Source of the DNA: a virus
Taxonomy: Duplodnaviria > Heunggongvirae > Uroviricota > Caudoviricetes
IMG/VR virus record: IMGVR_UViG_3300020685_000002
Length of the DNA stretch: 64,000 bases
Direction: 5' to 3' (one strand)
Shown: positions 1 through 43,913 of the stretch, one piece after another
Position numbering within the stretch: the stretch's first letter is position 1
How the letters are laid out: each line of letters begins with the position of its first letter
Notes under the pieces: model-generated
What the model was told of the DNA's origin: nothing
Seen by the model: the letters and a program-made list of their open reading frames with translations, nothing else
The model's database searches: none
Program-made: the position numbers and the translations under genes

Positions 1-1634
1 TTGGGAAAGATACTCCTGCGCAGGAAGTTTTACCCTCGTTTTCTCCACCTGTGCTAGATGATGGTGCTGTAACCATAACGGCTGCAGCACATTATGGAAC
101 AAGCATTGATTTAGATTCAAATTATAAGAATGATGTTGAGTTAATTACTCGGTATCGTGAAATGGCAATGCAACCAGAAATTGAAACTGCTGTTGACGAC
201 ATTATCAATGAAGCAGTAATTCATGACGAAGATGAATCAGTTAAAATTGTCTCAGATAATATCAAAGCCTCTCCAAAAGTAAGAGCTGCTATTGATGAAG
301 AATTCCAAAATATCTTAACTCTTTTAAATTTCAAAAATTTAGGCCAAGATATATTCAGAAGATATTATGTTGATGGAAGATTATTTTATAATATCATTCT
401 AGATAAAGAAAATCCACAAGCAGGTATTCAAGAATTACGTTATACTGATCCAAGAAAACTTACTAAAATCAGAGAAATAAAAAAAGTAAAAGATAAAACT
501 ACTGGTTTTGATATTGTGCAAGGATTTGCTGAATATTATATTTATTCAGATTCGATTTCTACAAAATCGAATTTATCTAATTCTGGACTAAGAATTGCTC
601 CAGATTCTATTATTTCTGTGACAAGCGGACTATTAGATTCAAAACGATCTATAATATTAAGTTATTTACATAAAAGTATTAAACCTCTCAATCAATTAAG
701 AATGATTGAAGATGCTACTATTATATATAAAATCTCTAGAGCTCCAGAAAGAAGAATATTTTATATAGATGTTGGAAATTTGCCGAAAATGAAGGCAGAA
801 CAATATCTTAAAGATATTATGACAAAATACAAAAATAAAGTTGTATATGATGCAAACACTGGTGCAATTCGTGATGATAGAAGATTTCTTTCTATGCAAG
901 AAGATTTCTGGTTACCAAGAAGAAATGGACAATCAACTGAAATTACAACATTACCATCATCAGCAGCATTTGATGATATGTCAATGATTGAATATTTTGA
1001 AAAGAAATTATATAAATCTTTAAATGTTCCATATTCAAGACTAATTCAATCTGATTCTCCTTTTGATGCAGGAAATCCGGACCAAATATCTAGAGACGAA
1101 ATTAAATTTGCAAAATTTATTAATAGATTAAGATTAAAATTTACTGATTTATTTGATCAAGCATTAAGAGTTCAATGTTACTTAAAAGGTATTTGTTCTC
1201 AAGAAGAATTTGATACATATAAACAACATATCTATTATGATTTTAAGATAGATAACCATTATGCAGAATTAATTGATGCACAACTATTGCAAAGTAGAAT
1301 GGGTGTTCTTGATTCTGTTGCCCCCTATGTTGGGAAATATTATTCACAACAATGGATTCAGAAAAATATATTACAATTTTCTGATGAAGATATTAAACAA
1401 ATGGCAAAAGAGATTACAGATGAAGTTAAAGATGGATGGTATCCTGACCCAAAACTTGCTGCAACAGATCCATCTTTAGGTGGTTTACCTCCTGATGGGA
1501 GCCAAGACTCTTTGCCTGTTTCAGATAATACTGATGCTAGCAACGATCAACAAGATGAACCACAAAATAAACCTGTAAAAAAACAAAAAGATTCTGATCA
1601 ACAATCTAATAACCCATATTATACTAATGGCTAA
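1..1634 (+). CDS. 20: Portal vertex protein gp20, 5'-truncated by the window edge. The track ORF starts at GTG 51, but the frame is open back to nt 3.
   Basis: By-eye alignment to T4 gp20 (PKLDDGAREF.. vs PPVLDDGAVTI.., LxDA..IYxIxRAPxRR, YDAxTGxI). The frame has no stop between nt 3 and 51, so the start lies upstream of the window. Confidence 0.9.
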   Translation, partial: GKDTPAQEVLPSFSPPVLDDGAVTITAAAHYGTSIDLDSNYKNDVELITRYREMAMQPEIETAVDDIINEAVIHDEDESVKIVSDNIKASPKVRAAIDEEFQNILTLLNFKNLGQDIFRRYYVDGRLFYNIILDKENPQAGIQELRYTDPRKLTKIREIKKVKDKTTGFDIVQGFAEYYIYSDSISTKSNLSNSGLRIAPDSIISVTSGLLDSKRSIILSYLHKSIKPLNQLRMIEDATIIYKISRAPERRIFYIDVGNLPKMKAEQYLKDIMTKYKNKVVYDANTGAIRDDRRFLSMQEDFWLPRRNGQSTEITTLPSSAAFDDMSMIEYFEKKLYKSLNVPYSRLIQSDSPFDAGNPDQISRDEIKFAKFINRLRLKFTDLFDQALRVQCYLKGICSQEEFDTYKQHIYYDFKIDNHYAELIDAQLLQSRMGVLDSVAPYVGKYYSQQWIQKNILQFSDEDIKQMAKEITDEVKDGWYPDPKLAATDPSLGGLPPDGSQDSLPVSDNTDASNDQQDEPQNKPVKKQKDSDQQSNNPYYTNG

Positions 1635-2046
1635 ACATATAAAAAAAGATTTACCACAAGTTTTGGTATTAAAACGGCAGTTTATTCAAAGATTTCCAAA
1701 TGGACAAATGGTTGCATTATATCATTCTGATCATTTAAATCAATTTGTTACTGTTCCTTTAGACAATTCACAATTTTCTTCTAATACAGTTGAAAGCGTT
1801 TTAGAAAGATTAAATTATATCTCAGAAAATGATGATGTCGAAACATTAGTATTTGAAGATCTATCTGAATTGAATATAAATAAAGAATGTGCTGATATAA
1901 TGTTAGAATTTATTGCATCTCAACCGGAATTATTAGAAGCAATTGTTGTTTCTGATAAAAAATTCTTAGAATTATTAGAACAGGCTGTAAATTTATCATC
2001 AGATATACCGGAATCTGAATCAAATCAGGAGTTAGAAGAACAATGA
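1627..2046 (+). CDS. Prohead core protein, gp67/gp68-like, with an acidic C-terminus.
   Basis: It sits between g20 and g21 as in T4. It is 139 aa with an acidic tail (ESESNQELEEQ) and overlaps the g20 stop. Confidence 0.45.
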   Translation: MAKHIKKDLPQVLVLKRQFIQRFPNGQMVALYHSDHLNQFVTVPLDNSQFSSNTVESVLERLNYISENDDVETLVFEDLSELNINKECADIMLEFIASQPELLEAIVVSDKKFLELLEQAVNLSSDIPESESNQELEEQ

Positions 2047-2693
2047 AATTATTAAACGAATTTACAGAATCGGTCTCAACTAATGTGTTGGTTGAAGAAA
2101 CGACTGGCAAAAAATCTTATAAAATTAATGGTCCATTTATTCATACAGAAGAAGCAAATAGAAATGGTCGTATTTATATAAAAGAACATATGCTTCCGGA
2201 AGTTTCTAGATATAAAAAAGATTTTGTAGATACAAGAAGAGCATTAGGAGAACTTTCTCACCCAGAAGGTCCAGCAATCAACCCTGATAAAGTTTCTCAT
2301 TTAATTACAAAATTAGAATTTGTTGATAATTTGTGCATTGGCGAGGCAACAATTCTAGATACCCCGAATGGTAATATCGTTAAATCATTTATTGATGCTG
2401 GAGTAAATTTTGGCGTCTCAACTAGAGGTCTTGGTTCGATCAAAGAATCTGGCGGTTTGAAATATGTCCAACCAGATTTTCGCTTAGTTACAGTAGATAT
2501 AGTTTTAGATCCATCTGGAAAAGCGTGTTATGTCGAAGGATTGATGGAAGGAAAAGAATGGATGTATGTTGATGGGAAAGGTTGGGTAGAACAATACCTT
2601 GAAGAATCGCGAAAAACCTTAAAAACACTAAAAGCTAAAGATGTTGAACCAATGGCGTTACAAATTTTTGAGAATTTTCTCGCAAAATTATAA
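2043..2693 (+). CDS. 21: Prohead core protease gp21.
   Basis: ALGELSHP....STRGLGS motifs match the T4 gp21 protease. The position is syntenic. Confidence 0.88.
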   Translation: MKLLNEFTESVSTNVLVEETTGKKSYKINGPFIHTEEANRNGRIYIKEHMLPEVSRYKKDFVDTRRALGELSHPEGPAINPDKVSHLITKLEFVDNLCIGEATILDTPNGNIVKSFIDAGVNFGVSTRGLGSIKESGGLKYVQPDFRLVTVDIVLDPSGKACYVEGLMEGKEWMYVDGKGWVEQYLEESRKTLKTLKAKDVEPMALQIFENFLAKL

Positions 2694-2696
2694 CTT

Positions 2697-2704
2697 TTAT
2701 AAAT
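2697..2704 (+). promoter_or_regulatory. T4-type late promoter box TATAAATA upstream of g22.
   Basis: An exact TATAAATA lies about 30 nt upstream of the g22 ATG, with an AAGAGGA ribosome-binding site. Confidence 0.5.
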
Positions 2705-2735
2705 AATACTAAACGAAATCTAAGAGGATATATAC

Positions 2736-3827
2736 ATGTCAAAAGAAAAAAATTTGAATCTTTCTGAAGCTGCATTAGAGATTCTGAACACAAACGTAAA
2801 AACAAAAGATGCTAGCCAAGATAAATTCGGCCAAGGCGAAAAATTAAAAGATACAGTAAATAAAAGTGCTTCTGATATCGGAAGTGCAAGTTTTGCAGAA
2901 TATGATTTGAAAGATGTTCCTACTGCAACTGCTCCAGGAGAAACTCCTCCTGTTGGCTCAGAACCAATTAAAAAATTAGCTCCTCAACCAGCAGAAACTT
3001 CAACAGCTGTTGATACTAAAGTTGACCAATTACCTAAAAAGGGAAAATTTGTTAACGAAGAGGAAGAAGTTGATGAAACTGAATCTGAAGAAGAAGTTAA
3101 TGAAGATATCGAAGCATTAATGGCTGGCGAAAACCTTTCTGAAGAATTTAAAAAGAAAGCTACTGCTATCTTTGAAGCTGCTGTTAAAGCAAAAGTTTCT
3201 GAATTAGCTGAAGAATTAGAAGCACAATATGTTGCTCAATTCGAAGAAGCTTATGAAGAAATGAAAGAAGATTTCTCAACAAAAGTAGACGAATATTTAG
3301 ATTACGTTGTTGAATCTTGGTTAGAAGAAAATACTCTTGCTATTGAATCAGGTCTAAGAACTGAAATAGCTGAAGGTTTTATGGAATCATTAAAAGCAGT
3401 GTTCGAAGAGCACTATATTGATATCCCTGAAGAAAAATTTGATGTAGTTGAAAGTTTAACTTCTAAAGTAGAAGTTTTAGAAAAACAAGTCAATGAAGAA
3501 ATGACAAAAAACATTAACTTGAAACAAAAATTGTCAGAACAAAAGAAAGTAGAAGCTCTTCATGCAGTTTGTGAAGGATTAACTTTATCTCAAGCAGAAA
3601 AAATTAAATCTATCGCCGAGGGTGTAGAATTTGTTTCTGATGAAGATTTCGTAAATCAAATGGAAGACATTAAAGAATCTTATTTCTCTACTGCTACTTC
3701 TGTTAAACCCGCTTCGAAAGAATCTTTGAACGATGTAGTAGAATTAATCGAAGAAAAAGAACAAAAAGTTGTTGATCCAGTTATCGCAGCTTATGCTTCT
3801 AAAATTTCTCAAACACTATTAAAATAA
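2736..3827 (+). CDS. 22: Prohead scaffolding core protein gp22.
   Basis: The protein is acidic and Glu/Lys-rich with coiled-coil character. It lies between g21 and g23. Confidence 0.8.
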   Translation: MSKEKNLNLSEAALEILNTNVKTKDASQDKFGQGEKLKDTVNKSASDIGSASFAEYDLKDVPTATAPGETPPVGSEPIKKLAPQPAETSTAVDTKVDQLPKKGKFVNEEEEVDETESEEEVNEDIEALMAGENLSEEFKKKATAIFEAAVKAKVSELAEELEAQYVAQFEEAYEEMKEDFSTKVDEYLDYVVESWLEENTLAIESGLRTEIAEGFMESLKAVFEEHYIDIPEEKFDVVESLTSKVEVLEKQVNEEMTKNINLKQKLSEQKKVEALHAVCEGLTLSQAEKIKSIAEGVEFVSDEDFVNQMEDIKESYFSTATSVKPASKESLNDVVELIEEKEQKVVDPVIAAYASKISQTLLK

Positions 3828-3861
3828 AAATACTTTAGAAAATAAAAAGGAGTTGTAAAAA

Positions 3862-5184
3862 ATGGCATTATTAAACGAAGAATTAAACCTAAAATGGGGT
3901 CCAATTTTAGAGCACCCTGAATTAACTAGCATTTCTGATCCATATAAAAAAGCAGTTACTGCTATTATTTTAGAAAATCAACAAAATGCAATGGATGCTG
4001 ATCGTCAAACTTTGAACGAAACAACAACTAACGTTGCTGGTGGTATTTCAAATTTTGATCCAATCTTAATCAGCTTAGTACGTCGTGCGCTTCCTAACTT
4101 AATTGCTTATGATATCGCTGGCGTTCAACCAATGACTGGCCCAACTGGTTTGATCTTTGCATTACGTTCACGTTACGGTTCACAATCTGGCGCCGAAGCT
4201 TTCTACAATGAAGCTAATACTATCTTCTCTGGTATTATTGGTAATACTCCAGCAGGTAATACTGGTTCTACTACTGCTTCTGCTGCTTCTGCAAATAGTG
4301 CTGTTGATTCTACTGGTCCATTAGCTTTATCTAGTTTTGATACTGGTACTGGTTTAACTACTGCTTTGGGTGAAGTTTTAGGTGCATCAAACGCTTTCCC
4401 TGAAATGGGTATCTCTATCGAGAAAGTAACTGTTTCTGCTAAAACTCGTGCATTGAAAGCTGAGTACTCTTTAGAAATGGCACAAGACTTAAAAGCAATT
4501 CATGGTCTTGACGCTGAAACTGAATTGTCTAATATTCTTTCTACTGAAATTTTATCAGAAATCAACCGTGAAGTTATCCGTACTATCTACACTGTAGCTA
4601 AAGCTGGTGCTCAATTCGGTACTGTAACTCCTGGTATATTTGATTTAGATACTGACTCAAATGGTCGTTGGTCAGTTGAGCGTTTCAAAGGTTTGATTTA
4701 TCATATCGAAAGAGAAGCTAACCAAATCGCGAAAACTACTCGTAGAGGAAAAGGTAACATCTTAATCGTTTCTTCTGATGTTGCTTCTGCTTTAGCAATG
4801 GCTGGTGTATTACAATATACTCCTGCTCTTTCTGCTGATCTACAAGTAGATGACACTGGAAATACTTTTGCTGGTTTGTTACATGGTCGTATCAAAGTTT
4901 ATATCGATCCTTATTTTGGTGGTTCTGCACAAAACGTAGAATTATGTACTGTTGGTTATAAAGGTACTTCTCCTTATGATTCAGGTTTATTCTACTGCCC
5001 ATACGTTCCTTTACAAATGGTTCGTGCAGTTGATCCTTCAACTTTCCAACCAAAAATTGGATTTAAGACTCGTTACGGTTTAGTTGCTAATCCTTTTGCT
5101 GAAGGTTTAAACCAAGGTTTAGGACAATTAAATGCTCGTGCAAACTTATATTACAGAATTTTTGCTATCAAAAACTTAATGTAA
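3862..5184 (+). CDS. 23: Major capsid protein gp23.
   Basis: The 440 aa protein sits in the syntenic position after g22. It has a strong AAGGAG ribosome-binding site and codon usage typical of a highly expressed gene. Sequence features match T4-like gp23 (LNEELNLKWGP.., GVQPMTGPTGLIFALR). Confidence 0.9.
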   Translation: MALLNEELNLKWGPILEHPELTSISDPYKKAVTAIILENQQNAMDADRQTLNETTTNVAGGISNFDPILISLVRRALPNLIAYDIAGVQPMTGPTGLIFALRSRYGSQSGAEAFYNEANTIFSGIIGNTPAGNTGSTTASAASANSAVDSTGPLALSSFDTGTGLTTALGEVLGASNAFPEMGISIEKVTVSAKTRALKAEYSLEMAQDLKAIHGLDAETELSNILSTEILSEINREVIRTIYTVAKAGAQFGTVTPGIFDLDTDSNGRWSVERFKGLIYHIEREANQIAKTTRRGKGNILIVSSDVASALAMAGVLQYTPALSADLQVDDTGNTFAGLLHGRIKVYIDPYFGGSAQNVELCTVGYKGTSPYDSGLFYCPYVPLQMVRAVDPSTFQPKIGFKTRYGLVANPFAEGLNQGLGQLNARANLYYRIFAIKNLM

Positions 5185-5211
5185 TAGAAACTATAACTTC
5201 GGTTATATTAG

Positions 5212-5239
5212 GAAAGGGGCTGAAAAGCCCCTTTTTTAT
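5212..5239. terminator. Rho-independent terminator that may serve both convergent genes.
   Basis: AAGGGGC-TGAAAA-GCCCCTT hairpin followed by T6. It lies between the g23 stop and the stop of the minus-strand gene. Confidence 0.75.
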
Positions 5240-5241
5240 GC

Positions 5242-6582
5242 TTAAAAGAAAGAATCAAAAGTAACAATTTCTTCTTCAATAAAATGATCTTTCCATAATT
5301 TATCAGCAACCCTTTTTACTTCAGGATTCTCTTTTCCAACAAGGGGTTGTTCATATTCTCCGCTATTATTACCTCCAAATGCAAGATTAATGAATTGTGA
5401 AGCAATAGTTTTTCTATCAAACGATAAAAGTTTCTTTTGATTGTTTTTAATAATTTTAAGATAATCTTTTTCATTAATATTAAAATATTGATTGATAAGA
5501 TCACCAAACTCTTTTGGTGTTGCATCATGAGGAATCATTAAATAATTTTCGTTTGGTTTAAATACTTCACCAATACCTTTTTCGTTGTCTGAAACTCCAA
5601 AATTTCTAGCAATAGGGACAACACCATTAAGCATAGAATCAACAATTACTCTATTAAAATGTTCTCCATAATTCATAGACCAACTAGGATCTAATAAAAA
5701 TTTACATGTATCAAGAATTTCGTCACGCTTATTTTCGGTAATAAATCCAATATATGAGAATTTTCCTGAATTTGCAGCATTGTCCCAAATTGGCATATTT
5801 AATCTATCACTACCAGCATTTGGATCTAATTGTTTTGTACAATGATATTCTGGCTTACACTTATCAACGGAAGTCATATAATTCCTTTCAATCCCATCAC
5901 CAGCTACAATAACATATCCATCAATATAGGGAACTGCTGCAATTAAATCATCAACCCTTTTCCACCGCTTAAATGTTTGTAAAGATAAAATTTTATCTTC
6001 TTTTAAAGCAAAAGATGGTATTTTCTGTTTTGATAAATCTTGAGGATTTAAAATTAAATTTCTTGGAACAGTTAAAAAATTAGCTGATTTTACTGCTGAT
6101 GGGTGAACACAAGCAAGACCTGAAAATTTATGTTGAAATTTATATATCCAAGAATAATTCTTAATAAGATTTCCGTCATGAATAACAACAATTTGTTTTG
6201 CTGTTACATCTTCAATCATTGGAGTCCAATCAAGAAAGTGTTCTGTTTCTGAATTTTTAAACCCAAAAATAGATTGCCAAATAACCAAATCATGTTTATT
6301 TGCATCTTCCACAAATCTAGAAATTTCATTAGTGTTCTTTAAAGCATAATACGGACAAATCCAACCCTTTCCTTGATGGACTGGATATCCAGTCCCCACA
6401 CCAATCTCATATCCTTCTTTTAAAGAATAATCAAGATCTCCTTTCTGAGGAGTTTTTGTTGGTTTCACAAATGCAAATGTCACATCATGACCAAGTTCTT
6501 TTAATCCAGCACATAACTGCTCATTATGATTAATAATTCCACCAAAATTATTAAACACATGCATAACTACAAATATTTTCAT
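5242..6582 (-). CDS. GT-B fold glycosyltransferase (GT1/GT4-like).
   Basis: N-terminus MKIFVVMHVFNNFGGIINH...GHDV is typical of a GT-B N-domain. The C-domain carries VIVAGDG and an E..F.RV..D.M..G.PI nucleotide-sugar-binding signature. Confidence 0.55.
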   Translation of the reverse strand: MKIFVVMHVFNNFGGIINHNEQLCAGLKELGHDVTFAFVKPTKTPQKGDLDYSLKEGYEIGVGTGYPVHQGKGWICPYYALKNTNEISRFVEDANKHDLVIWQSIFGFKNSETEHFLDWTPMIEDVTAKQIVVIHDGNLIKNYSWIYKFQHKFSGLACVHPSAVKSANFLTVPRNLILNPQDLSKQKIPSFALKEDKILSLQTFKRWKRVDDLIAAVPYIDGYVIVAGDGIERNYMTSVDKCKPEYHCTKQLDPNAGSDRLNMPIWDNAANSGKFSYIGFITENKRDEILDTCKFLLDPSWSMNYGEHFNRVIVDSMLNGVVPIARNFGVSDNEKGIGEVFKPNENYLMIPHDATPKEFGDLINQYFNINEKDYLKIIKNNQKKLLSFDRKTIASQFINLAFGGNNSGEYEQPLVGKENPEVKRVADKLWKDHFIEEEIVTFDSFF

Positions 6583-6594
6583 TTAATTCTCGCC

Positions 6595-8013
6595 TCAGAA
6601 GAAATCTTCAATACCATTTAATTCAAATGATTTTTTTAACCATGGATGATGTTTTTCTAACCATTCATCACCTTGATCGCCTTTGGATTTTAAATAATCA
6701 TACCACTCTTTTGCTCTAGCATAATCGTGATGTTTGTCTTCAGAGTCAGCCCACATTCCTGGACTTATTCCATTCCAACGGTTTCTTTGTTCTGGATGAT
6801 CTTTGTTTAATCTTCTTGATTCAACAAATATTCTTCTTTCTTGTTCATACTCAAAAGAACCTAATTCAGCCATAGATTCATGAGTAAATGCAATTATTGA
6901 TAATCTTTCTGCATCAGGATCCTCAAGAACAATTGGTGTATTTCCATGTAAACCAACAGTATTTAAAACTAATAATAAATCTCTTGGTCTAACATTTACA
7001 GCATAACCAATTTCAGGGAATGTTAGATAACCACCAGAAAACTTATCATTATTGCTCATGACACATAAATTTGCCATCCCTAATTCCATATTCTTGGCGT
7101 CATGATGTGCTGCAGTTCTAAAATTACGATTCACAGTTACTGTTGTAAATGGAGTTCCTGGAACTCGAAATTTAGAATCAATTTTTTCTGCTACTTCCAT
7201 TTGATTACTAAATCTCCATGGAAGTAATTCTTTAAATCCTTTAGATAAGGATTGTAAAAATGGATATGCTAATGCAAATTCTTCTGGATTATCTCTGGTA
7301 TAAGATGTTGCTCTACCATATGGAATTCTTGGATATCTTGAATACCAACCAGAAATGCCACTATTAACAACATTAGCATAAGTTGTATCGCTAATATAAT
7401 TATCTAAAATATCTTGTGCTTTCTTTTTTGCAATATCTACCTCTTCGTCACACAATGAATTTGCAAAATCATCAAATATAAAATTATTTGCTTTGATTTT
7501 TTCGGTCAACCAAACAACACCCCTACTCTCATCAGATTTTAATGTTTTATATTTCTCTCTAATTATATTAATTTCTTTTCTTGGATTTCTTTCTCCAAAA
7601 ATATCAGAAATATTATTTTTTAAAAAATGTTCAAGAATATCGAATTGCTCATCTGTAACCCATTCTCTTCCGCCACATGTACCTGTTCTTGGTCCACCAG
7701 CAATACCTCTATTTTGAGTTTCAACTGCTGCTTCTCGTAATCCAGCATAAGCTGAATCAGCTTCTTCTTGTGTAAAGAAGTTTTTACGGAATTTAAAAAC
7801 AATATTTTTTTCGTTCAACCCCTTTCCACAATGCCCACAATCCATATTTTTTTCACAATTTTCTTCAGCTGTGAAATCAGCACAATCTGGTGGTAAATAT
7901 ATATCACAATCTTCTTCTATCAATGTATGATAATGTGAATCATCTAACCATTGACCTATTAAATCTGGTCTTGGTATAACTTCTTCAGGTTTTAATACAA
8001 TTACTTTTGTCAT
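6595..8013 (-). CDS. 2OG-Fe(II) oxygenase of the P4H/lysyl-hydroxylase (P4Hc) type with a Cys-rich N-terminal region.
   Basis: AAHHDA...GG..F...LHG.TP....R.S.IAF resembles the PLOD/P4H HHDAS...H...R core (HxD..H plus a 2OG-binding Arg). The N-terminus carries the Cys-rich stretch CDIYLPPDC..CEKNMDCGHCGKG. Confidence 0.5.
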   Translation of the reverse strand: MTKVIVLKPEEVIPRPDLIGQWLDDSHYHTLIEEDCDIYLPPDCADFTAEENCEKNMDCGHCGKGLNEKNIVFKFRKNFFTQEEADSAYAGLREAAVETQNRGIAGGPRTGTCGGREWVTDEQFDILEHFLKNNISDIFGERNPRKEINIIREKYKTLKSDESRGVVWLTEKIKANNFIFDDFANSLCDEEVDIAKKKAQDILDNYISDTTYANVVNSGISGWYSRYPRIPYGRATSYTRDNPEEFALAYPFLQSLSKGFKELLPWRFSNQMEVAEKIDSKFRVPGTPFTTVTVNRNFRTAAHHDAKNMELGMANLCVMSNNDKFSGGYLTFPEIGYAVNVRPRDLLLVLNTVGLHGNTPIVLEDPDAERLSIIAFTHESMAELGSFEYEQERRIFVESRRLNKDHPEQRNRWNGISPGMWADSEDKHHDYARAKEWYDYLKSKGDQGDEWLEKHHPWLKKSFELNGIEDFF

Positions 8014-8092: not shown

Positions 8093-8100
8093 AATATAAA
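8093..8100 (+). promoter_or_regulatory. Late promoter box TATAAATA upstream of g3.
   Basis: AAAATATAAATATAG lies about 30 nt upstream of the ATG at 8128. Confidence 0.45.
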
Positions 8101-8127
8101 TATAGTAATAAAACAAAGGAACTTAAA

Positions 8128-8658
8128 ATGGCTGCACAAGACTTTTCTCCATGTGATCAAGATATTTTGCAATCTGCAAAATTTATCTTTACTATTCCTA
8201 GATTAACCTCTACACAATTCTTTTGTCAGGCAGCAAATATTCCTGGAATATCAACACATGCAAAATATCAAACTACTACATTTTTAGACCTAGCAATTCC
8301 AGGCGATAAAATAATTTTTGAGGATTTAAATATAGAATTTTTGTTAGATGAGGAATTGCAGTCATGGATTGGAATAAGTGAATGGATGCGGGGTATTGCG
8401 TTTCCTGAAAATTTTGATCAATATATAAATTTAAGGCATCAATCAAAATATAGTGAACGAGTAGAATTCCCTCAATATGCTGATGCAGAATTGGTTGTTT
8501 TATCTTCATCAAATCAACCAACAGTAAAAGTATATTTTAAAGATTTATTTCCTATTTCTTTATCTGCGATAGACTTTGATATAAGATTGAGTTCTGAAAA
8601 AGTAATGACAGCATCTGCGTCCTTTAAATATAAAAGGTATGATGTAGAAATATTGTAG
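8128..8658 (+). CDS. 3: Tail completion and sheath stabiliser protein gp3 (tail-tube-like fold).
   Basis: It is 176 aa, the same length as T4 gp3. The g23-g3-uvsY-uvsW order is the one conserved in cyanomyoviruses. It shows weak tail-tube-family similarity. Confidence 0.55.
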   Translation: MAAQDFSPCDQDILQSAKFIFTIPRLTSTQFFCQAANIPGISTHAKYQTTTFLDLAIPGDKIIFEDLNIEFLLDEELQSWIGISEWMRGIAFPENFDQYINLRHQSKYSERVEFPQYADAELVVLSSSNQPTVKVYFKDLFPISLSAIDFDIRLSSEKVMTASASFKYKRYDVEIL

Positions 8659-10637: not shown

Positions 10638-10740
10638 ATCTTAATTACGGCTAACTGGAGGCTTACTGTTTAATGATATTTTTTAATTGACCTTATAGTA
10701 TCAATTAGTAATTATCTATCTTCAAATGCTTTAAAATGAT

Positions 10741-11006
10741 GGTTGCGAGCGCAGCGAAGCAGGAGCGAAGCGACTTAATAAGACCTAATTGAATTTAATT
10801 AATACTATCTCTACTTTAAAAATATTAATTGAATTTAAACTACATCGAGTTGCTTTAACTCGTCGCTTCGCTCCTGCTTCGCTGCGCTCGCACAACATCT
10901 ATTTTGTTTAATATTAGATTTAAACTACATCGAGTTGCTTTAACTCGTCGCTTCGCTCCTGCTTCGCTGCGCTCGCACAACATCTATTTTGTTTAATATT
11001 AGATTT
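10741..11006. repeat. GC-rich inverted and tandem repeat element. A 34-nt arm at 10741-10774 is matched by its reverse complement inside each of two tandem 85-bp units (10837-10921 and 10922-11006).
   Basis: GGTTGCGAGCGCAGCGAAGCAGGAGCGAAGCGAC is matched by GTCGCTTCGCTCCTGCTTCGCTGCGCTCGCAC in both tandem units. The element is a sharp GC spike in an AT-rich intergenic region. Confidence 0.8.
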
Positions 11007-11482
11007 AAGCAGCAGCGAAGGATATGACACCCCATTTTCAGGGGGCATCAAAATTTTTTTTAGATTTATGACAGTAAGTATTTTTATTTGAATCCGCATT
11101 ATTGGGCTCTGTACCTTACCCCACTTACTACGATTTTTAAAGAGAACTCGGTGTCAGTTTCTCTATATAATGCTTTTTATGAATTCTAGATCGAATAAAA
11201 TATATTAACAAGTTAATGTTCTATTCTGACCTTTATTTAACCTTTTACGATTATCTTAACCGAATCCCAGAACGGCTGGTACGATTTAAGGCATCCCTTT
11301 CGGGGCAGAAGATAAAAGACTACGGTATGAAGCGTAGATTTGGAGTACCATCTCCTTTAAGAATGGATTTTCCGGTGAAATATAAATCGGCTCACCAACC
11401 TTTAAACTCATACATTTATAGTTAATATTTAGTCAATACTAAATACACATAAATCAAAGTCTACTATAACATTTAAAAAAAG

Positions 11483-12222: not shown

Positions 12223-12894
12223 ATGAAAGAATTAGATTTAGATTTAGATATAAGGTTTGATGAAGTCATACCAGAAGAAATTATTCCTGAGGAAATCTTT
12301 TTAGATGATCCTATAAAAGACGAAACTGTAAAAGTTAAAAGGAAGAAGGTTCCAAAGAATTATATTAATAATGCAGATTTTTATGAAGCTATTGTAGAAT
12401 ATAAGAAAAAATGTGATTTAGCTAAAGAAAATGGAACAAAAAAACCGATTGTTTCCAATTATATTGGTGAGTGTTTTACAAAGTTAGCAGAGGGTCTTTC
12501 TAGAAGACCAAATTTTTTCGGTTATTCTTATCGTGATGAAATGGTTTCTGATGGTATAGAAAATTGTTTGAGATATATTGAAAATTTTAATCCAGAAAAA
12601 ACAAAAAACCCTTTTGCATATTTTACCCAAATATTATGGTGGGCTTTTGTTCGTAGAATTAAAAAAGAAAAAACACAACAATACATCAAATATAAAGCTA
12701 CAGAAAATTTTGGTATTTTAGATACTGCTGAATTGATGGAATTGGGTGATGGAAATATTAAACAAATTGAAGTTTATGATAATTTATATGAGTATATTAA
12801 GAAATTTGAAGAAACATCTTTAAAGAAAACAGAAAAACCCATAAAAGAAAAGCAAATTAAAGTTTGTGGAATTGAAACTTTCTTGGAGGGTTAA
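12223..12894 (+). CDS. 55: Late transcription sigma factor gp55.
   Basis: AEGLSRRPNFFGYSYRDEMVSDGIE..NPFAYFTQI..FVRRIKKEK aligns with T4 gp55. Confidence 0.85.
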   Translation: MKELDLDLDIRFDEVIPEEIIPEEIFLDDPIKDETVKVKRKKVPKNYINNADFYEAIVEYKKKCDLAKENGTKKPIVSNYIGECFTKLAEGLSRRPNFFGYSYRDEMVSDGIENCLRYIENFNPEKTKNPFAYFTQILWWAFVRRIKKEKTQQYIKYKATENFGILDTAELMELGDGNIKQIEVYDNLYEYIKKFEETSLKKTEKPIKEKQIKVCGIETFLEG

Positions 12895-16292: not shown

Positions 16293-17087
16293 ATGGAAAT
16301 AAAAATTAGTAAAGAAACATTGGAAGGAAAATCAATATTTATTGCAACACCAATGTATGGTGGTCAATGCCTTGGTATGTATATGAAATCTTGTTTGGAC
16401 CTTCAAACATTATGTATCCAATATGGTGTTGAAATTAAATTCTCATTTCTTTTTAATGAGAGTCTTATCCAAAGAGCTAGAAATTATCTAGTTGATGAAT
16501 TTGTACGGTCTTCATGCACACATATGATGTTTATTGATGCAGATATTTCTTTCAATCCAATTGATATTCTTGCAATGATCTCTTTGGATAAAGATATTAT
16601 TGGCGCACCATATCCAAAGAAAACTATTAAGTGGTCTAATGTCAAAAAGGCTATTTTAAAAAATCCAGATATTGATGTTGGGGAATTAGAAAAACTTGGT
16701 GGTGATATTGTATTTAATCCAGTTGCTGGGACAGAAAGATTTAGTGTAACAGATCCTCTTGAAGTATTGGAAGTTGGTACTGGAATGATGATGATTCGTA
16801 GAGATGTTTTTGAGCGATATAAAGAAGCATATCCAGAATATTCTTATCTTCCTGATCATGTTGGTACTGCAAATTTTAGTGGTGATAGAGAGATTATGTC
16901 ATATTTTAATGTTGAGATTGATCCAGGATCAAGAAGAACTTTGAGTGAAGATTATCACTTCTGTCAGCATAGTAGAAAAATTGGTATTCAAATTTGGATG
17001 GCTCCATGGATTATTTGTGGTCATACTGGAACCTATATGTTCCAAGGAAGTCTTCCTTCAATTGCAGCAAATTTGGGCGAATTATAA
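16293..17087 (+). CDS. Putative GT-A fold glycosyltransferase-like protein.
   Basis: IATPMYGG and FIDADI (DxD-like) motifs plus a C-terminal ED..F signature. The family assignment is uncertain. Confidence 0.35.
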   Translation: MEIKISKETLEGKSIFIATPMYGGQCLGMYMKSCLDLQTLCIQYGVEIKFSFLFNESLIQRARNYLVDEFVRSSCTHMMFIDADISFNPIDILAMISLDKDIIGAPYPKKTIKWSNVKKAILKNPDIDVGELEKLGGDIVFNPVAGTERFSVTDPLEVLEVGTGMMMIRRDVFERYKEAYPEYSYLPDHVGTANFSGDREIMSYFNVEIDPGSRRTLSEDYHFCQHSRKIGIQIWMAPWIICGHTGTYMFQGSLPSIAANLGEL

Positions 17088-17782: not shown

Positions 17783-17867
17783 TCTTAGGTACTCTAATGG
17801 TAAGAGATTTGACTGTTAATCAAACGTATACAGAAATGTTATGGGGGTTCGAGTCCCTCCCTAAGAG
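17783..17867 (+). tRNA. tRNA-like gene with anticodon GTT (Asn) and an unusual 18-nt variable region, flanked by a 16-bp extended inverted repeat.
   Basis: A cloverleaf can be drawn by hand. The acceptor is TCTTAGG/CCTAAGA, the D-arm is CTCT..AGAG, the anticodon stem is TTTGA/TCAAA with loop CTGTTAA, and the T-arm is GGGGG-TTCGAGT-CCCTC. The acceptor pairing extends outward as GAGCAGTGC...GCACTGCTC. Confidence 0.5.
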
Positions 17868-17985
17868 CACTGCTCATTTAAATAAATTACAAGGTAAAAT
17901 CTTGAAAGAAAACACTTCAAAGGTCGGGAGATACACTTTGAATAGTGGTGCAGTAAAAGTCTGTGATATCTCCCCCTTGTTTTGA

Positions 17986-18058
17986 GGATGGTAGCTCAAT
18001 GGTAGAGCAGTTTGTTAGAAATAACATTTAAGCATGGGTTCGAATCCCATCGTTCCTC
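17986..18058 (+). tRNA. Degenerate tRNA-like element or possible pseudo-tRNA.
   Basis: Canonical D-arm (GCTCAATGGTAGAGC) and T-arm (ATGGG-TTCGAAT-CCCAT) are present. The acceptor stem and anticodon arm cannot be folded cleanly. Confidence 0.3.
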
Positions 18059-18069
18059 ACTTAGTTTAT

Positions 18070-18145
18070 CTCTCTGTAGTGTAGTCTGGTAACATGATGC
18101 GTTTGGGGCGCATTGTCCTTCGTTCAAATCGAAGCAGAGAGACCA
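18070..18145 (+). tRNA. tRNA-Pro (anticodon TGG) with an encoded CCA end.
   Basis: The acceptor is CTCTCTG/CAGAGAG, the anticodon stem is ATGCG/CGCAT with loop TTTGGGG, the T-arm is CTTCG-TTCAAAT-CGAAG, and the 3' end reads A-CCA. Confidence 0.75.
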
Positions 18146-18149
18146 GTTT

Positions 18150-18240
18150 GGAAGAGTGGTTGAGTGGTTTAAGACAGCAGTCTTGAAAACTGTCGAGGGT
18201 TAATACCCCTCCGTGGGTTCGAATCCCACCTCTTCCGCCA
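18150..18240 (+). tRNA. tRNA-Ser (anticodon TGA), class II with a long variable arm and an encoded CCA end.
   Basis: The acceptor is GGAAGAG/CTCTTCC, the anticodon loop is CTTGAAA, the variable arm is long, the T-arm is GTGGG-TTCGAAT-CCCAC, and the 3' end reads G-CCA. Confidence 0.75.
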
Positions 18241-18245
18241 TTTTC

Positions 18246-18323
18246 GCACCACTAGCTCAATTGGTTAGAGCTCTCCGCTCATAACGGATAGGTTCTGGGT
18301 TCAAATCCCAGGTCGGTGCACCA
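18246..18323 (+). tRNA. tRNA with anticodon CAT (Met or Ile2). The acceptor stem is imperfect.
   Basis: D-arm AGCTCAATTGGTTAGAGCT, anticodon loop CTCATAA, T-arm CTGGG-TTCAAAT-CCCAG and a 3' CCA are present. Only 5 of 7 acceptor pairs can be drawn. Confidence 0.55.
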
Positions 18324-18398: not shown

Positions 18399-19082
18399 AT
18401 GAAAATATCACCAGAAACAAATGCGATTCTAAAAAACTTCGCACATATTAATCAATCATTATTCTTTAAAAAAGGTTCTGTCATCTCAACTATGAGTCCA
18501 CAAAAGAATATTCTTGTTGATGCAACAATTACAGAAACTATACCACAAGATTTTGGTATTTACGATTTAAATAATTTTTTATCTGTGACATCATTATTTA
18601 AAGATGGCTCTGAATTAGAATTTGATCAAAATCATGTAATTATCAAAGGTTTGAATGGTAGGTCAAAAATTAAATACCGTATTACTGATCCATCAATGAT
18701 TGTAGTTGCTCCAGATAAACGTCCCAAACTTCCAGTTGTTGATGTTAAATTTACATTCTCAAAAGAAGATCTAGAATGGGTTATTAAAACAGCGTCTGTT
18801 ATTGGTGCACCACATTTAGCTGTTGAATCAGACGGTACAACTGTATCATTAGTGACATTTGATGAGAGTAATGATGCAGGTCATACAAACTCATTAGAAA
18901 TGAGTGATGTGGATCCAGAAGGAAATGTGTTTAAATTAGTTTATAAAACTGAAAATTTAAAAGTTATTCCTGATTCATATTCTGTTGAAATTAGTTCTAA
19001 AGGTATTTCAACATGGACTTCAATAACTAATGAAATTAAATATTACATTACATTAGAAACATCAAGTAAATTTGGAGGGTAA
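18399..19082 (+). CDS. 45: Sliding clamp gp45.
   Basis: N-terminus MKISPETNAILKNFAHINQSL matches T4 gp45 MKLSKDTTALLKNFATINSGI. It is 227 aa. Confidence 0.85.
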   Translation: MKISPETNAILKNFAHINQSLFFKKGSVISTMSPQKNILVDATITETIPQDFGIYDLNNFLSVTSLFKDGSELEFDQNHVIIKGLNGRSKIKYRITDPSMIVVAPDKRPKLPVVDVKFTFSKEDLEWVIKTASVIGAPHLAVESDGTTVSLVTFDESNDAGHTNSLEMSDVDPEGNVFKLVYKTENLKVIPDSYSVEISSKGISTWTSITNEIKYYITLETSSKFGG

Positions 19083-19667: not shown

Positions 19668-20609
19668 ATGGTAAGAGAAGAGATTCTGTGGGCTCAAAAA
19701 TACAGACCAAATAAAATTGCAGATTGTATTCTTCCTGAATCAATCAAAACATCATTTCAAGAATTTGTTAACCAAGATAAAATCCCAAATCTGTTGATTT
19801 CTGGTTCTCAAGGTTCTGGTAAAACAACACTTGCAAAAGCTCTTTGTGAAGAAGTTGGTTGTGATTACATAATTATTAATGGATCTGATGAAAATGGTAT
19901 TGATGTTCTTCGTGGGAAAATTAAAAATTATGCTTCTTCAGTTTCTTTGAGTGGAGGGAGAAAGGTTGTAATTATTGATGAAGCGGATTATCTTAATGCA
20001 AATTCGTTACAACCAGCATTGCGTAACGCTATAGAAGAATTTTCTATTAATTGTTCTTTTATTTTCACATGCAATTATAAAAATAGAATTATTGAACCAT
20101 TACATTCAAGATGTTCTGTTATTGATGTGAAAATATCAAAGGAAGATAAACCTAAATTGATGGCTCAGTTTTTTAAACGAGTTTGTTGGATTTTAGGTGA
20201 AGAAAAGATAGAATATAATAAAGAAGTTGTAGCTCAAGTTATTTCTAAATATTATCCAGATAACCGTAGAATCCTTAATGAATTACAACGTTATGCGATG
20301 GGTGGAACAATTGATGTAGGTTTATTGTCTCAAGTTTCCGATATTCAATTAACACCTTTAATTACAGCGTTAAAAGAAAAGAATTTTGCAGATACTAGAA
20401 AATGGTTATCTGATAATGACGATATTGATTCTGTAACACTTTTCAGAAAATTGTATGATAATTCTTATGAATTGTTAAAACCAAATTCAATTCCACAATT
20501 AGTTTTATTGATAGCAAAATATCAATATCAAAACGCTTTCGTTGCTGATCAGCAAATTAATACGTTAGCATTGTTTACTGAAATGATGATAGAATTGGAA
20601 TATCAATAA
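19668..20609 (+). CDS. 44: Clamp loader large subunit gp44 (AAA+).
   Basis: Walker A (SGSQGSGKTT), a DEAD-like IIDEAD box and an SRC motif (SRCSVID). Confidence 0.85.
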   Translation: MVREEILWAQKYRPNKIADCILPESIKTSFQEFVNQDKIPNLLISGSQGSGKTTLAKALCEEVGCDYIIINGSDENGIDVLRGKIKNYASSVSLSGGRKVVIIDEADYLNANSLQPALRNAIEEFSINCSFIFTCNYKNRIIEPLHSRCSVIDVKISKEDKPKLMAQFFKRVCWILGEEKIEYNKEVVAQVISKYYPDNRRILNELQRYAMGGTIDVGLLSQVSDIQLTPLITALKEKNFADTRKWLSDNDDIDSVTLFRKLYDNSYELLKPNSIPQLVLLIAKYQYQNAFVADQQINTLALFTEMMIELEYQ

Positions 20610-20989
20610 TGGATTTATTTAAGGATTTGCTTCCAGGTATATTGCAAAAAAAGAATTATATCCTTAATGAAGATAACGAAAAAGAATATAAACCTTATAT
20701 TGTTAATATGGCATTATCGCAACATACTGATTGTGTATTATATGTAAATGAGATGAATCAATATCCAAGTCTTGATAATAAGATGCAATATGATTTTTAT
20801 TATTATGCTTTACGAGCCCAGAAACGTCCGTATCAAAAGTGGTTTAAATCTACAGAATCAAAAGACCTATTAAATGTGAAAGAATACTTTGGATTTTCTT
20901 CTGAGAAGGCAAAAGAAGCTTTGAGAATACTGACAACAGAACAATTAGGACATATAGCTAAAATTGTTGATAAAGGTGGTAGGGAATAG
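20609..20989 (+). CDS. 62: Clamp loader small subunit gp62.
   Basis: 126 aa ORF immediately downstream of g44 with overlapping stop and start, as in T4. Confidence 0.6.
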   Translation: MDLFKDLLPGILQKKNYILNEDNEKEYKPYIVNMALSQHTDCVLYVNEMNQYPSLDNKMQYDFYYYALRAQKRPYQKWFKSTESKDLLNVKEYFGFSSEKAKEALRILTTEQLGHIAKIVDKGGRE

Positions 20990-27264: not shown

Positions 27265-27429
27265 AATACAAAAAGTGGAAAAAAATATATTTGATACTGT
27301 TATGGATAAAGATGTTTGGGCAACAACATCATCATTTCAAAAACGTGAAATTTGCATATATTGTGGGAAAGAAAGTGTGGTCGGTAATATTAAACGCTGG
27401 CATAATGATAATTGTAAAGAGAAAAAAAT

Positions 27430-29873: not shown

Positions 29874-30209
29874 ATGGAAAAACGATATACAGTTGTTGGT
29901 GAAGATATTGATATATCTGATGGTTATCATACAATGTCAGAATTATATGCACATAGATGTACACTATTTGCTGCATTGTTAAAGTCTCACCCACAAGCTT
30001 CTTGGAAGAGTAAAAAACACAGCGATGGTACATCTTGGGATGGTTGGTTTATTGCTGGTATGAGATTACCAACAGGTGATGTTACATATCACCTTCCTGT
30101 AGACGAATTTTGGGAAATTCTTCCGATTGCTGAGTTGGAATTTGGTGTCGTTTGGGATGGTCATACATCTGATGATGTTGTGAGACGAATTATGGAATGG
30201 ATAAAATGA
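29874..30209 (+). CDS. Hypothetical protein.
   Basis: 111 aa ORF translationally coupled to g41. Confidence 0.4.
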   Translation: MEKRYTVVGEDIDISDGYHTMSELYAHRCTLFAALLKSHPQASWKSKKHSDGTSWDGWFIAGMRLPTGDVTYHLPVDEFWEILPIAELEFGVVWDGHTSDDVVRRIMEWIK

Positions 30210-32510: not shown

Positions 32511-32511
32511 T

Positions 32512-33435: not shown

Positions 33436-33438
33436 ATT

Positions 33439-34773: not shown

Positions 34774-34776
34774 GTT

Positions 34777-35463: not shown

Positions 35464-35464
35464 T

Positions 35465-36091: not shown

Positions 36092-36092
36092 T

Positions 36093-38363: not shown

Positions 38364-38381
38364 TTAATTGAAGGTGAACTT

Positions 38382-40148: not shown

Positions 40149-40150
40149 TT

Positions 40151-41083: not shown

Positions 41084-41085
41084 TA

Positions 41086-42264: not shown

Positions 42265-42271
42265 GGGTTTT

Positions 42272-43902: not shown

Positions 43903-43913
43903 TTGAGATTAAT

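Follow-up and report, generated by a model that had tools for sequence, protein, structure and literature searches.

A TET/JBP-type dioxygenase and glycosyltransferase gene pair inserted beside the major capsid gene of a T4-like phage: a predicted DNA-hypermodification cassette with putative sliding-clamp tails

Two adjacent minus-strand genes between the gp23 and gp3 genes of a T4-like phage, found in a window of 64,000 nucleotides (the whole stretch of DNA that was analysed), are best explained by base chemistry, as a two-gene, apparently co-transcribed DNA-hypermodification cassette, a reading to which a probability of roughly 0.6 is assigned. That the cassette serves DNA-base modification and is built on a TET/JBP enzyme is very likely. 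In the first proposed step an Fe(II)/2-oxoglutarate (2OG) dioxygenase would hydroxylate the 5-methyl group of thymine in already polymerised phage DNA to give 5-hydroxymethyluracil (5hmU); in the second, a GT4-type GT-B glycosyltransferase (GT) would move a sugar from a nucleotide-sugar to the 5hmU hydroxyl to give a base-J-like glycosyl-5hmU. The dioxygenase belongs to the TET/JBP family by profile and fold, and thymine as its substrate, taken jointly with glycosyl-5hmU as the product, is probable on the basis of sequence. In a third step the enzymes may ride the gp45 clamps left on newly replicated DNA, modifying it just behind the fork, and the modification would presumably shield phage DNA from host nucleases. 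The pair is a phage 5-methylpyrimidine dioxygenase (5mYOX)-GT hypermodification cassette of a kind already known; it is new in its N-terminal Cys4 domain and in its putative clamp tethering.

The dioxygenase gene (6595-8013, minus strand) encodes 472 residues and is a TET/JBP-family 5mYOX of long form, predicted to act on thymine; the GT gene (5242-6582, minus strand) encodes a 446-residue protein with a GT-B fold of the GT4-type, retaining class, predicted to be a DNA (5hmU) glycosyltransferase. Both reading frames lie where the earlier note had placed them, and the insertion that it described at the g23-g3 junction is borne out by the flanks, which are the gene of the gp23 major capsid protein (3862-5184, plus strand; Pfam Gp23, E 2.8e-144) and that of a gp3 tail completion and sheath stabiliser homologue (8128-8658, plus strand; phrog_45, Phage_TTP_2), the latter matching annotated gp3 of cyanomyoviruses by tblastn. 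Transcription of the two genes converges with that of gp23 and diverges from that of gp3. In two cultured relatives, S-SM2 and pelagimyophage Mosig, the order is gp23-(small ORF)-gp3 with no insert, and the cassette is therefore a real 2.9-kb insertion. In sister lineages the same slot is occupied by the dioxygenase together with a TAGT or with a kinase. The name cyanomyovirus attached earlier to this junction is not established, as gp23 is ~61-62% identical to those of cyano-, pelagi-, Methylophilales and Stenotrophomonas T4-like phages alike, and a near-identity DNA search found no close cultured relative.

In the gap where the gp23 and GT genes converge, a terminator-like hairpin, GGGGCT-GAAA-AGCCCC followed by TTTTTT, can be recognized by eye (5216-5237, plus strand); it is absent from the list of an automatic terminator scan, and the sigma-70 and terminator scans gave signal no higher than shuffled expectation. 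A late-promoter-like box, TATAAATA, stands upstream of gp3 (8095-8102) and none stands before the cassette. Since such boxes are no commoner in the window than expected (12 found, ~17 expected), the late-promoter evidence on cassette timing was dropped and the argument from expression timing is given no weight.

The dioxygenase matches the Pfam Tet_JBP family (PF12851) at 97.2 bits (cutoff 34.9; E 7.6e-28) over profile positions 10-164 of 164, and the limits of this match delineate a DSBH catalytic domain of residues 226-379 (6877-7338, minus strand). TET2 ranks first among its PDB sequence matches and is also its best structural match, in a hit list that contains no JBP catalytic-domain structure for comparison, and the TET class scores far above other 2OG oxygenase classes in fold comparison. 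The H-x-D...H...R.S core noticed earlier is present as H303-x-D305 (7099-7107), H356 (6946-6948) and R370 (6904-6906), all on the minus strand, which together with S372 are invariant in 45 homologues; in a separate database set the iron/2OG motif is found in 119 of 120 homologues. These residues align to the iron and 2OG ligands of TET2, with H303, D305, H356 and R370 opposite H1382, D1384, H1881 and R1896. Homologues in Cr30, DLP_6 and S-CBWM1 carry the label "SNF2 DNA repair protein", which looks like a carried-over misnomer because neither an SNF2 domain nor a J-binding domain is present.

No P4H or PLOD family, by contrast, is matched at E <= 1 in Pfam, and the PLOD/prolyl-4-hydroxylase resemblance initially perceived is merely that of the generic DSBH fold. 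Profile and fold scores rule out a P4H/PLOD assignment, so that the question of P4Hc versus TET/JBP is answered on the TET/JBP side. The evidence does not support what had been the leading idea, that in the manner of collagen and PLOD or of mimivirus L230 the oxygenase would hydroxylate Pro or Lys of gp23 or other virion proteins for glycosylation by the GT; the earlier note had named DNA-base modification with base-J logic as the alternative target, and it is this alternative that the evidence favors. Other phages carry the same pair in the replication module, adjoining a dNMP kinase and gp45, and proximity to the capsid gene is therefore incidental. Where the dioxygenase has another partner in the gp23/gp3 slot, it is an enzyme acting on DNA bases (TAGT or P-loop kinase); a polymerase-type tail closes both proteins of the pair; and, as weak evidence, the cassette lies on the other strand and lacks the late-promoter box. 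Hydroxylation and glycosylation of virion proteins is accordingly considered barely credible.

The catalytic domain is preceded by a family-specific N-terminal domain of residues 1-215 (7369-8013, minus strand), the Cys-rich extension of the earlier description, and the four residues of its Cys4 cluster (C44, C53, C59 and C62; 7828-7884) are indeed nearly invariant in the 45-homologue alignment. The domain is conserved in the long-form family, whose members are 440-480 residues in length, and is lacking from short phage TETs. The idea that it is a ParB fused to the enzyme, or some DNA-binding domain already known, was dropped because no similarity was detected by PDB profile search, in Pfam, or by hhalign against a ParB-like protein. 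An exhaustive search of 1.84 billion proteins yielded only 83 representatives, all of them this fusion or fragments.

Thymine as the probable target is suggested by the genes with which the dioxygenase family associates. A neighbour survey covered 90 loci whose dioxygenase homologues are 48-70% identical; immediately downstream of these stand a GATase (44 loci), an amino-acid:DNA transferase (AADT, PF18724; 34), a P-loop nucleotide kinase (PF18751; 24) and, as glycosyltransferases, the GT-B of the present pair (16) and a TAGT (PF20691; 14). The TAGT and 5-HMUDK families were reportedly defined by Iyer et al. in 2013. In the window the GT is the sole hypermodification partner of the dioxygenase. 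The P-loop kinase and AADT families act on 5hmdU in DNA, and for TET_JBP genes next to such enzymes the production of 5hmU in situ has been argued before (PMC8989533; PMC13229309). The window also encodes ThyX and a dCMP deaminase, from which it follows that the DNA contains thymine.

On a cytosine route, a C5-methyltransferase (C5-MT) elsewhere in the phage or in the host would produce 5mC, which the dioxygenase would convert to 5hmC for glycosylation by the GT, as in the characterised clade A/B TET-GT pathways of phages. Phage TETs with this chemistry and with GT partners are experimentally established (PMC8256090; bioRxiv 2023.12.21.572611), and T and 5mC are both substrates of some phage 5mYOX (PMC8256090). 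The best structural match, TET2, is a 5mC enzyme, and exactly this MT-TET arrangement is found in Melnitz (Kyanoviridae), where an HhaI-type MT precedes the TET gene. The Melnitz TET is, however, of the short form and only 26% identical to the dioxygenase. A regular expression for C5-MT motif IV (PC[QP]x[FWY]S), which detects the Melnitz MT as a positive control, found no match in six frames of the window, 64 kb of a genome of probably at least 140 kb, and none within +/-10 kb of 90 homologues (92 loci scanned), and PF00145 does not occur in the precomputed Pfam lists. Since in characterised cases the C5-MT is an immediate neighbour, and since the recurrent partners of this dioxygenase family are 5hmU-specific enzymes, the cytosine route is judged improbable.

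The neighbouring protein was rightly recognized as a GT-B enzyme. It has two Rossmann-like domains, the C-terminal one matching PF00534 (Glycos_transf_1), and an E-x7-E-type donor-site motif; its fold and its linkage to the dioxygenase gene are shown, its acceptor and its sugar predicted. The sugar linkage is probably alpha, by analogy with the fold of retaining GT4 enzymes and of T4 alpha-GT. The top fold matches of the GT are lipid and polysaccharide GT4 enzymes, with T4 alpha-GT equally close at ~10% sequence identity. Such matches, together with the large sugar island at 30-45 kb and the many loci in which the dioxygenase is found without any GT, would fit a GT that is engaged with the island in host-surface or polysaccharide work and merely adjoins a dioxygenase whose own end product is 5hmU. 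This is nevertheless very improbable in view of the spacing of only 12 nt between the two genes, where a GAGG Shine-Dalgarno (SD) sequence overlaps the dioxygenase stop codon, and of the position of the GT, which immediately follows the dioxygenase in 15 of 16 loci and in the remaining one lies two genes farther along within the cassette. The GT family has no tblastn match in 50,697 phage records, yet it occurs with the dioxygenase family on long contigs, and the two genes are kept together at two unrelated places in the genome. In addition, this GT has at its C-terminus the tail characteristic of the DNA-directed enzymes, which is absent from the 7 other GT-like genes of the window and from every GT of the sugar island. 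The spacing, the overlapping SD and the retention of the pair in two positions thus argue that the GT would work with the dioxygenase.

The tail in question, of the form [S/G]-[L/I]-[E/D]-x-[F/L]-F(G), is shared by the dioxygenase and both of its glycosyltransferase partners, the GT and the alternative TAGT. The dioxygenase ends in NGIEDFF (6598-6618, minus strand), with F471 and F472 invariant in 45 homologues and with a C-terminus that in the predicted structure is flexible, of low pLDDT, with a short helix; the GT ends in VTFDSFF (5245-5265, minus strand), with F446 invariant in 39 sequences. Both are putative gp45-binding peptides. NGIEDFF is nearly identical to the tail SIEDFFS (26318-26338, plus strand) of the gp43 DNA polymerase of the same genome (gene 23795-26341, Pfam DNA_pol_B), and a second reference client, the gp55 late sigma factor (12223-12894, phrog_234, E 1.9e-57), ends in GIETFLEG (12868-12891, plus strand). 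The gp45 sliding clamp, the proposed docking platform, is encoded at 18399-19082 on the plus strand (Pfam gp45-slide_C, E 3.2e-9) alongside the clamp-loader subunits gp44 (19668-20609) and gp62 (20609-20989). A 62-residue ORF with a tail-like end (17797-17985) overlaps a tRNA and was discarded as spurious.

Among the surveyed loci the strict tail is carried by 83 of 90 dioxygenases, all 16 GT-B proteins and 13 of 14 TAGTs, as against 22 of 1212 other ORFs, and in an independent database set by 110 of 119 dioxygenases and 114 of 120 GTs, although these counts come from related loci of common ancestry and do not represent independent events. The 22 are TAGTs, cassette kinases, AADTs, a cassette gene and a 189-aa ORF adjoining the clamp loader, the AADT and kinase families carrying the tail only in part. 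The polymerases in 27 loci end in SSLEDFFG, and the enzyme tails co-vary within genomes with those of polymerase and gp55, some as identical 8-mers; the short TETs of non-T4-like phages have no such tail. T4 gp43 ends in EKASLDFLFG and binds gp45 through that end (PMC6212786), the gp55 C-terminus is a clamp-binding epitope in T4-family phages, and the tails of T4 gp43, gp55 and gp33 are interchangeable gp45 ligands (PMC2988020). T4 alpha-GT also binds gp45 (PMC13216743) and is an earlier example of a DNA GT bound to the clamp. In the literature searched no mention was found of clamp-binding tails on 5mYOX or GT enzymes. From the peptides, the odds that the dioxygenase and the GT are tethered to the gp45 clamp through their tails appear about even, and the shared polymerase-type tail suggests that DNA would be decorated right behind the replication fork.

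Alternatively the base chemistry may be as proposed and the tail bind some other replisome or nucleoid partner, associate the enzymes with each other, or act as a stability signal, the DNA being found unaided or by the N-terminal domain. The extra 215 residues of the dioxygenase could indeed supply DNA binding, T4 ligase demonstrates that clamp motifs can be internal so that a terminal position is not required, and the kinship of the loci inflates the tail counts. The match to polymerase and gp55, whose T4 orthologues bind gp45 by that very terminus, the co-variation of the tails, their absence from homologues in non-T4-like phages and the T4 alpha-GT precedent all argue against a role of the tail apart from the clamp, which is considered unlikely.

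Docking on the clamp would substitute for the ParB-like activator of short phage T-dioxygenases. Some clade C1 5mYOX that lack ParB were reported to show no activity on T or 5mC in E. coli (PMC13229309), which weighs against the proposed reading. A search of the window for the ParB-like cluster and for HTVC112P gp17 returned no homologue, and a weakly ParB-like gene is present in only 8 of the 90 family loci. A wider and more tentative generalization from these sequences, held at somewhat less than even odds, is that in a widespread group of uncultured T4-like aquatic myoviruses the entire thymine-hypermodification toolkit docks on gp45 through polymerase-type tails, modification being coupled to replication, the clamp replacing the ParB of small phages, and the product in this phage being alpha-glycosylated 5hmU, a phage analogue of base J. 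The toolkit in that reading comprises the long-form TET/JBP dioxygenase, the GT4 and TAGT glycosyltransferases, a GNAT, and some kinases and AADTs. Post-replicative thymine hypermodification by phage TET/JBP enzymes was shown only recently, and published work does not settle why some 5mYOX are inactive when expressed by themselves or by what means they reach DNA, the sole activator of 5mYOX known so far being ParB. A clamp-docking tail common to the dioxygenase and its interchangeable partners offers a testable answer for T4-like phages and, if true, adds a new class of client to the sliding-clamp "toolbelt". It is further predicted that abundant environmental phages contain a base-J-like sugar-thymine, with a bearing on restriction evasion, sequencing and cloning.

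Among known systems, the T4-family gp45 clients gp43, gp55 and gp33 bear at the extreme C-terminus S-L-[DE]-x-hydrophobic-F-(G) after a variable linker, as do the enzymes here. The known clients are replication and transcription proteins, whereas the present ones would be DNA-base-modifying enzymes, and in the literature searched base-modifying dioxygenases, TAGTs and GT4 enzymes are not among the listed gp45 clients. T4 alpha-GT differs from the GT here in its ~10% identity and in acting on 5hmC that is incorporated before replication.

The phage C5-MT/TET/GT clusters that yield glycosylated 5hmC (Burke et al. 2021; Pyle et al. 2023, Cell Rep 2024) likewise combine a dioxygenase with a GT, and their GT-B members resemble T4 glucosyltransferases; the authors of those studies already remarked that an MT is missing from most 5mYOX-GT contigs, for which 5hmU is the probable product, and that structural genes, gp45 or a clamp are close to some of them (PMC8256090; bioRxiv 2023.12.21.572611). 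The present locus differs from the clusters in having no MT and in its predicted acceptor, 5hmU. No experimental demonstration of phage glycosylation of 5hmU was found in the literature searched.

The T-acting phage 5mYOX (ParB-independent clade C2 and ParB-dependent C1, O'Toole et al. 2026, PMC13229309; TET89, Burke et al. 2021, PMC8256090) resemble the dioxygenase family here in matching PF12851, in having TET2 as best structural relative, in lacking an adjacent C5-MT, and in their GT, GATase, P-loop kinase and AADT partners; post-replicative conversion of T to 5hmU has been proposed as the priming step for hypermodification (PMC13229309). Characterised members are apparently ~300 aa long, judging from C280 as the last conserved residue and from isolate homologues of 288-328 aa, and to this size the present family adds the 215-aa Cys4 domain and the polymerase-type tail. 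Unlike the ParB-dependent enzymes, the dioxygenase here has no ParB-like gene in its window.

Base J of kinetoplastids arises by the same two steps on DNA, a TET/JBP dioxygenase (JBP1/2) producing 5hmU that is then glycosylated by JGT. JGT belongs to the TAGT family, and it is a TAGT-family GT (PF20691) that sister phage lineages place in the same genomic slot. In the present cassette, in contrast, the GT is of the GT-B/GT4 type and not a GT-A TAGT, the linkage is more likely to be alpha than beta, and the dioxygenase, without a J-binding domain or an SNF2 domain, is found in a viral context.

The dioxygenase ORF (6595-8013, minus strand, 472 aa) and the adjoining glycosyltransferase (GT) ORF (5242-6582, minus strand, 446 aa) lie between the capsid gene gp23 (3862-5184, plus strand; Pfam Gp23, E 2.8e-144) and a plus-strand gene for a 176-aa protein at 8128-8658, itself followed by UvsY and UvsW. 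Cultured cyanomyoviruses have homologues of this 176-aa protein that are annotated gp3 (tail completion and sheath stabiliser protein). The opposite-strand, two-gene insertion proposed in the earlier note, 2.9 kb long, is real, because Synechococcus phage S-SM2 and Pelagibacter phage Mosig have the uninterrupted order gp21-gp22-gp23-(small ORF)-gp3-uvsY-uvsW-gp55 with no insert. The interruption of the junction thus stands, but its cyanomyovirus label is insecure, since gp23 is ~61-62% identical alike to those of cyano-, pelagi-, Methylophilales and Stenotrophomonas T4-like phages. The gp3 homologue is at most 41% identical to that of any cultured phage, and a DNA search of phage records with the window gave no close match. 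The two inserted genes are spaced by 12 nt, with a GAGG overlapping the stop codon of the upstream gene, and co-transcription with translational coupling is most likely. The gp23 and GT genes converge on a clean hairpin with a T-run (5216-5237, plus strand) that separates them. Beyond UvsW, 578 nt of slightly higher GC than the surroundings (10638-11215), a gap also present in the close relatives L005-L007, contains no ORF of at least 60 aa (one minus-strand ORF of 59 aa, 10920-11099), no tRNA and no Rfam match.

The earlier note took the oxygenase to be of the P4H/PLOD type and called for a decision between P4Hc and TET/JBP. Pfam and TET2 matches decide for TET/JBP: residues 226-379 score 97.2 bits (cutoff 34.9) for Tet_JBP (PF12851), the sole Pfam family, with no P4H or PLOD family found even at E <= 1; and human TET2 is the only meaningful PDB sequence match, with H303/D305 and H356/R370/S372 aligning with its iron and 2-oxoglutarate ligands. 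In PHROGs the full-length match is to phrog_24024, of unknown function. The enzyme is accordingly assigned by sequence to the TET/JBP class. The H-x-D...H...R.S core and the Cys-rich N-terminal extension are both present and conserved, as had been described. Residues 1-215 conserve FKFRK, NRG, two Trp and four near-invariant Cys, and are predicted to fold confidently except for a low-confidence loop carrying the four Cys. This domain has no detectable relative in PDB or Pfam and no likeness to a ParB-like protein, and is confined to the present fusion (83 representatives among the 1.84 billion proteins searched). Relatives of the dioxygenase number 2705 in the database at E <= 1e-5, and 566 IMG/VR contigs encode them; nearly all of the best 120 are full length, with 119 having at least 430 aa, and show 50% identity or more. 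In Cr30, DLP_6 and S-CBWM1 the homologues bear the annotation "SNF2 DNA repair protein", apparently a wrong name inherited from JBP2. Caulobacter phage Cr30 (L001) and Stenotrophomonas phage DLP_6 (L002) are cultured T4-like phages with full-length long-form dioxygenases, and Cr30 carries an amino-acid:DNA transferase (AADT) cluster gene six ORFs downstream; hypermodified thymine may be present in both isolates, which could serve as experimental models.

The partner is assigned to the GT-B glycosyltransferases, as first suggested. Its C-terminal half matches Pfam Glycos_transf_1, with weak matches to GT4 N-terminal families, and its E-x7-[DE] donor-site motif (E307...D315) is kept in 119/120 homologues. 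Among the predicted viral structures that the GT matches are SP-15 glycosyltransferases and proteins bearing the name DNA alpha-GT. Relatives number in the hundreds in metagenomes, with none in 50,697 phage records.

ORFs were called in 92 loci, neighbours clustered and cluster representatives annotated. The dioxygenase is the constant first gene and is followed by exchangeable cassettes: glutamine amidotransferase (GATase; 44 loci), AADT (PF18724; 34), P-loop nucleotide kinase (PF18751; 24), GT-B of the window type (16), TET-associated glycosyltransferase (TAGT, PF20691; 14), another GT1 (7), and GNAT acetyltransferases in two clusters of 17 and 12 genes. The gp23/gp3 slot of sister lineages holds dioxygenase plus TAGT (L013, L016, L018-L021) or dioxygenase plus kinase (L014, L015). 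No ParB-like, partner kinase, AADT, GATase or TAGT gene is found in the window, and its cassette is a minimal dioxygenase-GT pair. In a second context such a pair stands immediately before an Anp1-like gene, dNMP kinase, gp45 and gp44 (e.g. L037, L054, L080); nearness to the capsid gene, which had been read as pointing to a virion-protein target, is therefore incidental.

DNA-base modification, previously offered as the alternative target, is the best reading from the Tet_JBP class and the partner genes: thymine would be oxidized to 5-hydroxymethyluracil (5hmU) by the dioxygenase and converted by the GT to glycosyl-5hmU, a base-J-like product. The kinase and transferase partner families have been shown to act on 5-hydroxymethyl-dU in DNA, and TET_JBP genes beside such enzymes, on contigs without a dUMP hydroxymethylase, have been read as converting thymine in situ to 5hmU (PMC8989533). 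Later work demonstrated thymine dioxygenases of phages and gives a C5-MT for only ~6% of pathways of 5-methylpyrimidine dioxygenases (5mYOX) (PMC13229309). C5-MT motif IV is absent from the six-frame translation of the 64-kb window and from every one of the 92 loci scanned; as a positive control, the same regex finds the HhaI-type methylase directly before the short dioxygenase (26% identical) of Methylophilales phage Melnitz, a clear example of the 5mC-type arrangement. In this Kyanoviridae phage (L097), positions 1-5395 encode, in this order, DNA polymerase, the HhaI-type C5 methylase, the short TET (328 aa), which ends in a gp55-like tail, NLNDFLGE, that the methylase lacks, and a 427-aa ORF. 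The window encodes ThyX and dCMP deaminase, and the phage therefore makes thymidylate. The sugar linkage is probably alpha, because the GT fold is of the retaining type and resembles GT4 and T4 alpha-GT. A 16-gene sugar island (30197-44918) includes GT2, GT10 fucosyltransferase-like, GT-D, GT34 and GT11 genes, two DegT aminotransferases, a split E1/transketolase-like pair, GDP-mannose 4,6-dehydratase (GMD) and several epimerases; it looks like an O-antigen, polysaccharide or LPS-type cluster and is a possible but uncertain source of sugar for the DNA GT.

The dioxygenase alignment has an invariant F-F at its C-terminal end. Comparison of the C-termini of all 75 window ORFs showed like ends on DNA polymerase gp43 (...NSIEDFFS), the dioxygenase (...NGIEDFF), the GT (...VTFDSFF) and the late sigma factor gp55 (...GIETFLEG; phrog_234), with further matches only in the prohead protease, three residues from its end, and in a spurious 62-aa ORF (17797-17985) overlapping tRNA-Asn. 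The stretch between dNMP kinase and gp45 holds a cluster of five tRNA genes (Asn, Ser, Pro, Ser, Met; 17783-18323). Scored across the 92 loci, which are related by ancestry, a strict pattern ([LIMF][DE]x[FLM]F plus 0-1 terminal residue) is found in 83/90 dioxygenases, 16/16 GT-Bs, 13/14 TAGTs and 22/1212 of all other ORFs, the 22 being 13 TAGTs, 2 kinases of the slot, 2 AADTs, 2 copies of a cassette gene and 3 of a 189-aa ORF by the clamp loader. A looser form occurs on 16/17 cassette GNATs and 11/34 AADTs, and none on capsid, tail, portal, UvsX/Y/W, DnaB or GATase proteins of these loci. Independent database homologues carry the strict tail in 110/119 dioxygenases and 114/120 GTs (consensus [S/G]-[L/I]-[E/D]-x-[F/L]-F-(G)), and polymerases in 27 loci end in SSLEDFFG or a close variant.

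The tails co-vary within genomes (3.83 vs 3.26 of 5 positions identical; 0/2000 shuffles reach the observed value), and some genomes have an identical 8-mer on dioxygenase and GT (STLEDLFG; STLDDMFG). Such lineage-specific co-variation is seen in the Met-Phe variant of L080, L081 and L089, where dioxygenase and GT end STLDDMFG and the ORF of 189 aa that follows gp44, probably a small subunit of the clamp loader, ends STLDHMFV. In models the dioxygenase and GT tails are flexible low-confidence ends with a short helix, and linkers of variable length precede them. The tail is absent from the short dioxygenases of the small non-T4-like phages HTVC112P (302 aa) and P12024L (288 aa), and from the 7 other GT-like genes of the window, sugar-island GTs included. 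At 1545-3079, Pelagibacter phage HTVC112P (L095) has a ParB-like gene immediately upstream of its short TET/JBP gene (annotated "DnaJ / SNF2 DNA repair"), and is a cultured phage with the ParB-dependent arrangement already described in print. Also tailless is an Anp1-like/GT-A-like gene at 16293-17087 (phrog_1574, unknown function), which might also be a modification gene; 12 other phages have an orthologue just downstream of the dioxygenase-GT cassette, ahead of dNMP kinase and gp45, and in 10 of these it directly follows the GT.

T4 gp43 ends EKASLDFLFG, a peptide that binds the gp45 clamp (PMC6212786), and the window encodes gp45 (18399-19082, plus strand) together with clamp-loader subunits. 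A clamp-bound DNA GT has a precedent in T4 alpha-glucosyltransferase, which was found to co-purify with gp45 (Sommer 2004, as reproduced in PMC13216743). It is proposed, on motif identity, enrichment, co-variation and controls among loci related by ancestry, that the dioxygenase and its partners are gp45 clients; modification enzymes of T4-like phages would thus be held by the clamp via polymerase-type C-terminal tails. No mention of such tails on 5mYOX or partner enzymes was found in the literature searched; recent work proposes that ParB, a DNA clamp of another kind, stabilises short 5mYOX on DNA.

Elsewhere in the window, at 26356-27987 and 55870-58189 (also 29079-29870), intein-like C-terminal blocks ...VADNHQYVLENGVITHNT and ...VEDNHNFFANGILVHNC appear to interrupt UvsX-like and NrdA-like genes, and the gp41/DnaB-like ORF looks truncated as well; 59926-60369 encodes a SegE-like GIY-YIG homing endonuclease.

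A 5hmU product of MT-less 5mYOX is a prediction already in print, and base chemistry of this kind was to be expected; the idea of a clamp toolbelt comes as a surprise, is cheap to test and bears on how 5mYOX enzymes get activated. The cassette is the same in kind as the phage 5mYOX-GT hypermodification cassettes, a class established since 2021, and under the best reading its logic is like that of the base J pathway, with a GT-B replacing the TAGT/JGT type. Unlike characterised 5mYOX, the window dioxygenase is long-form, its cassette is without a ParB partner, and dioxygenase and partner enzymes share a polymerase-type tail.
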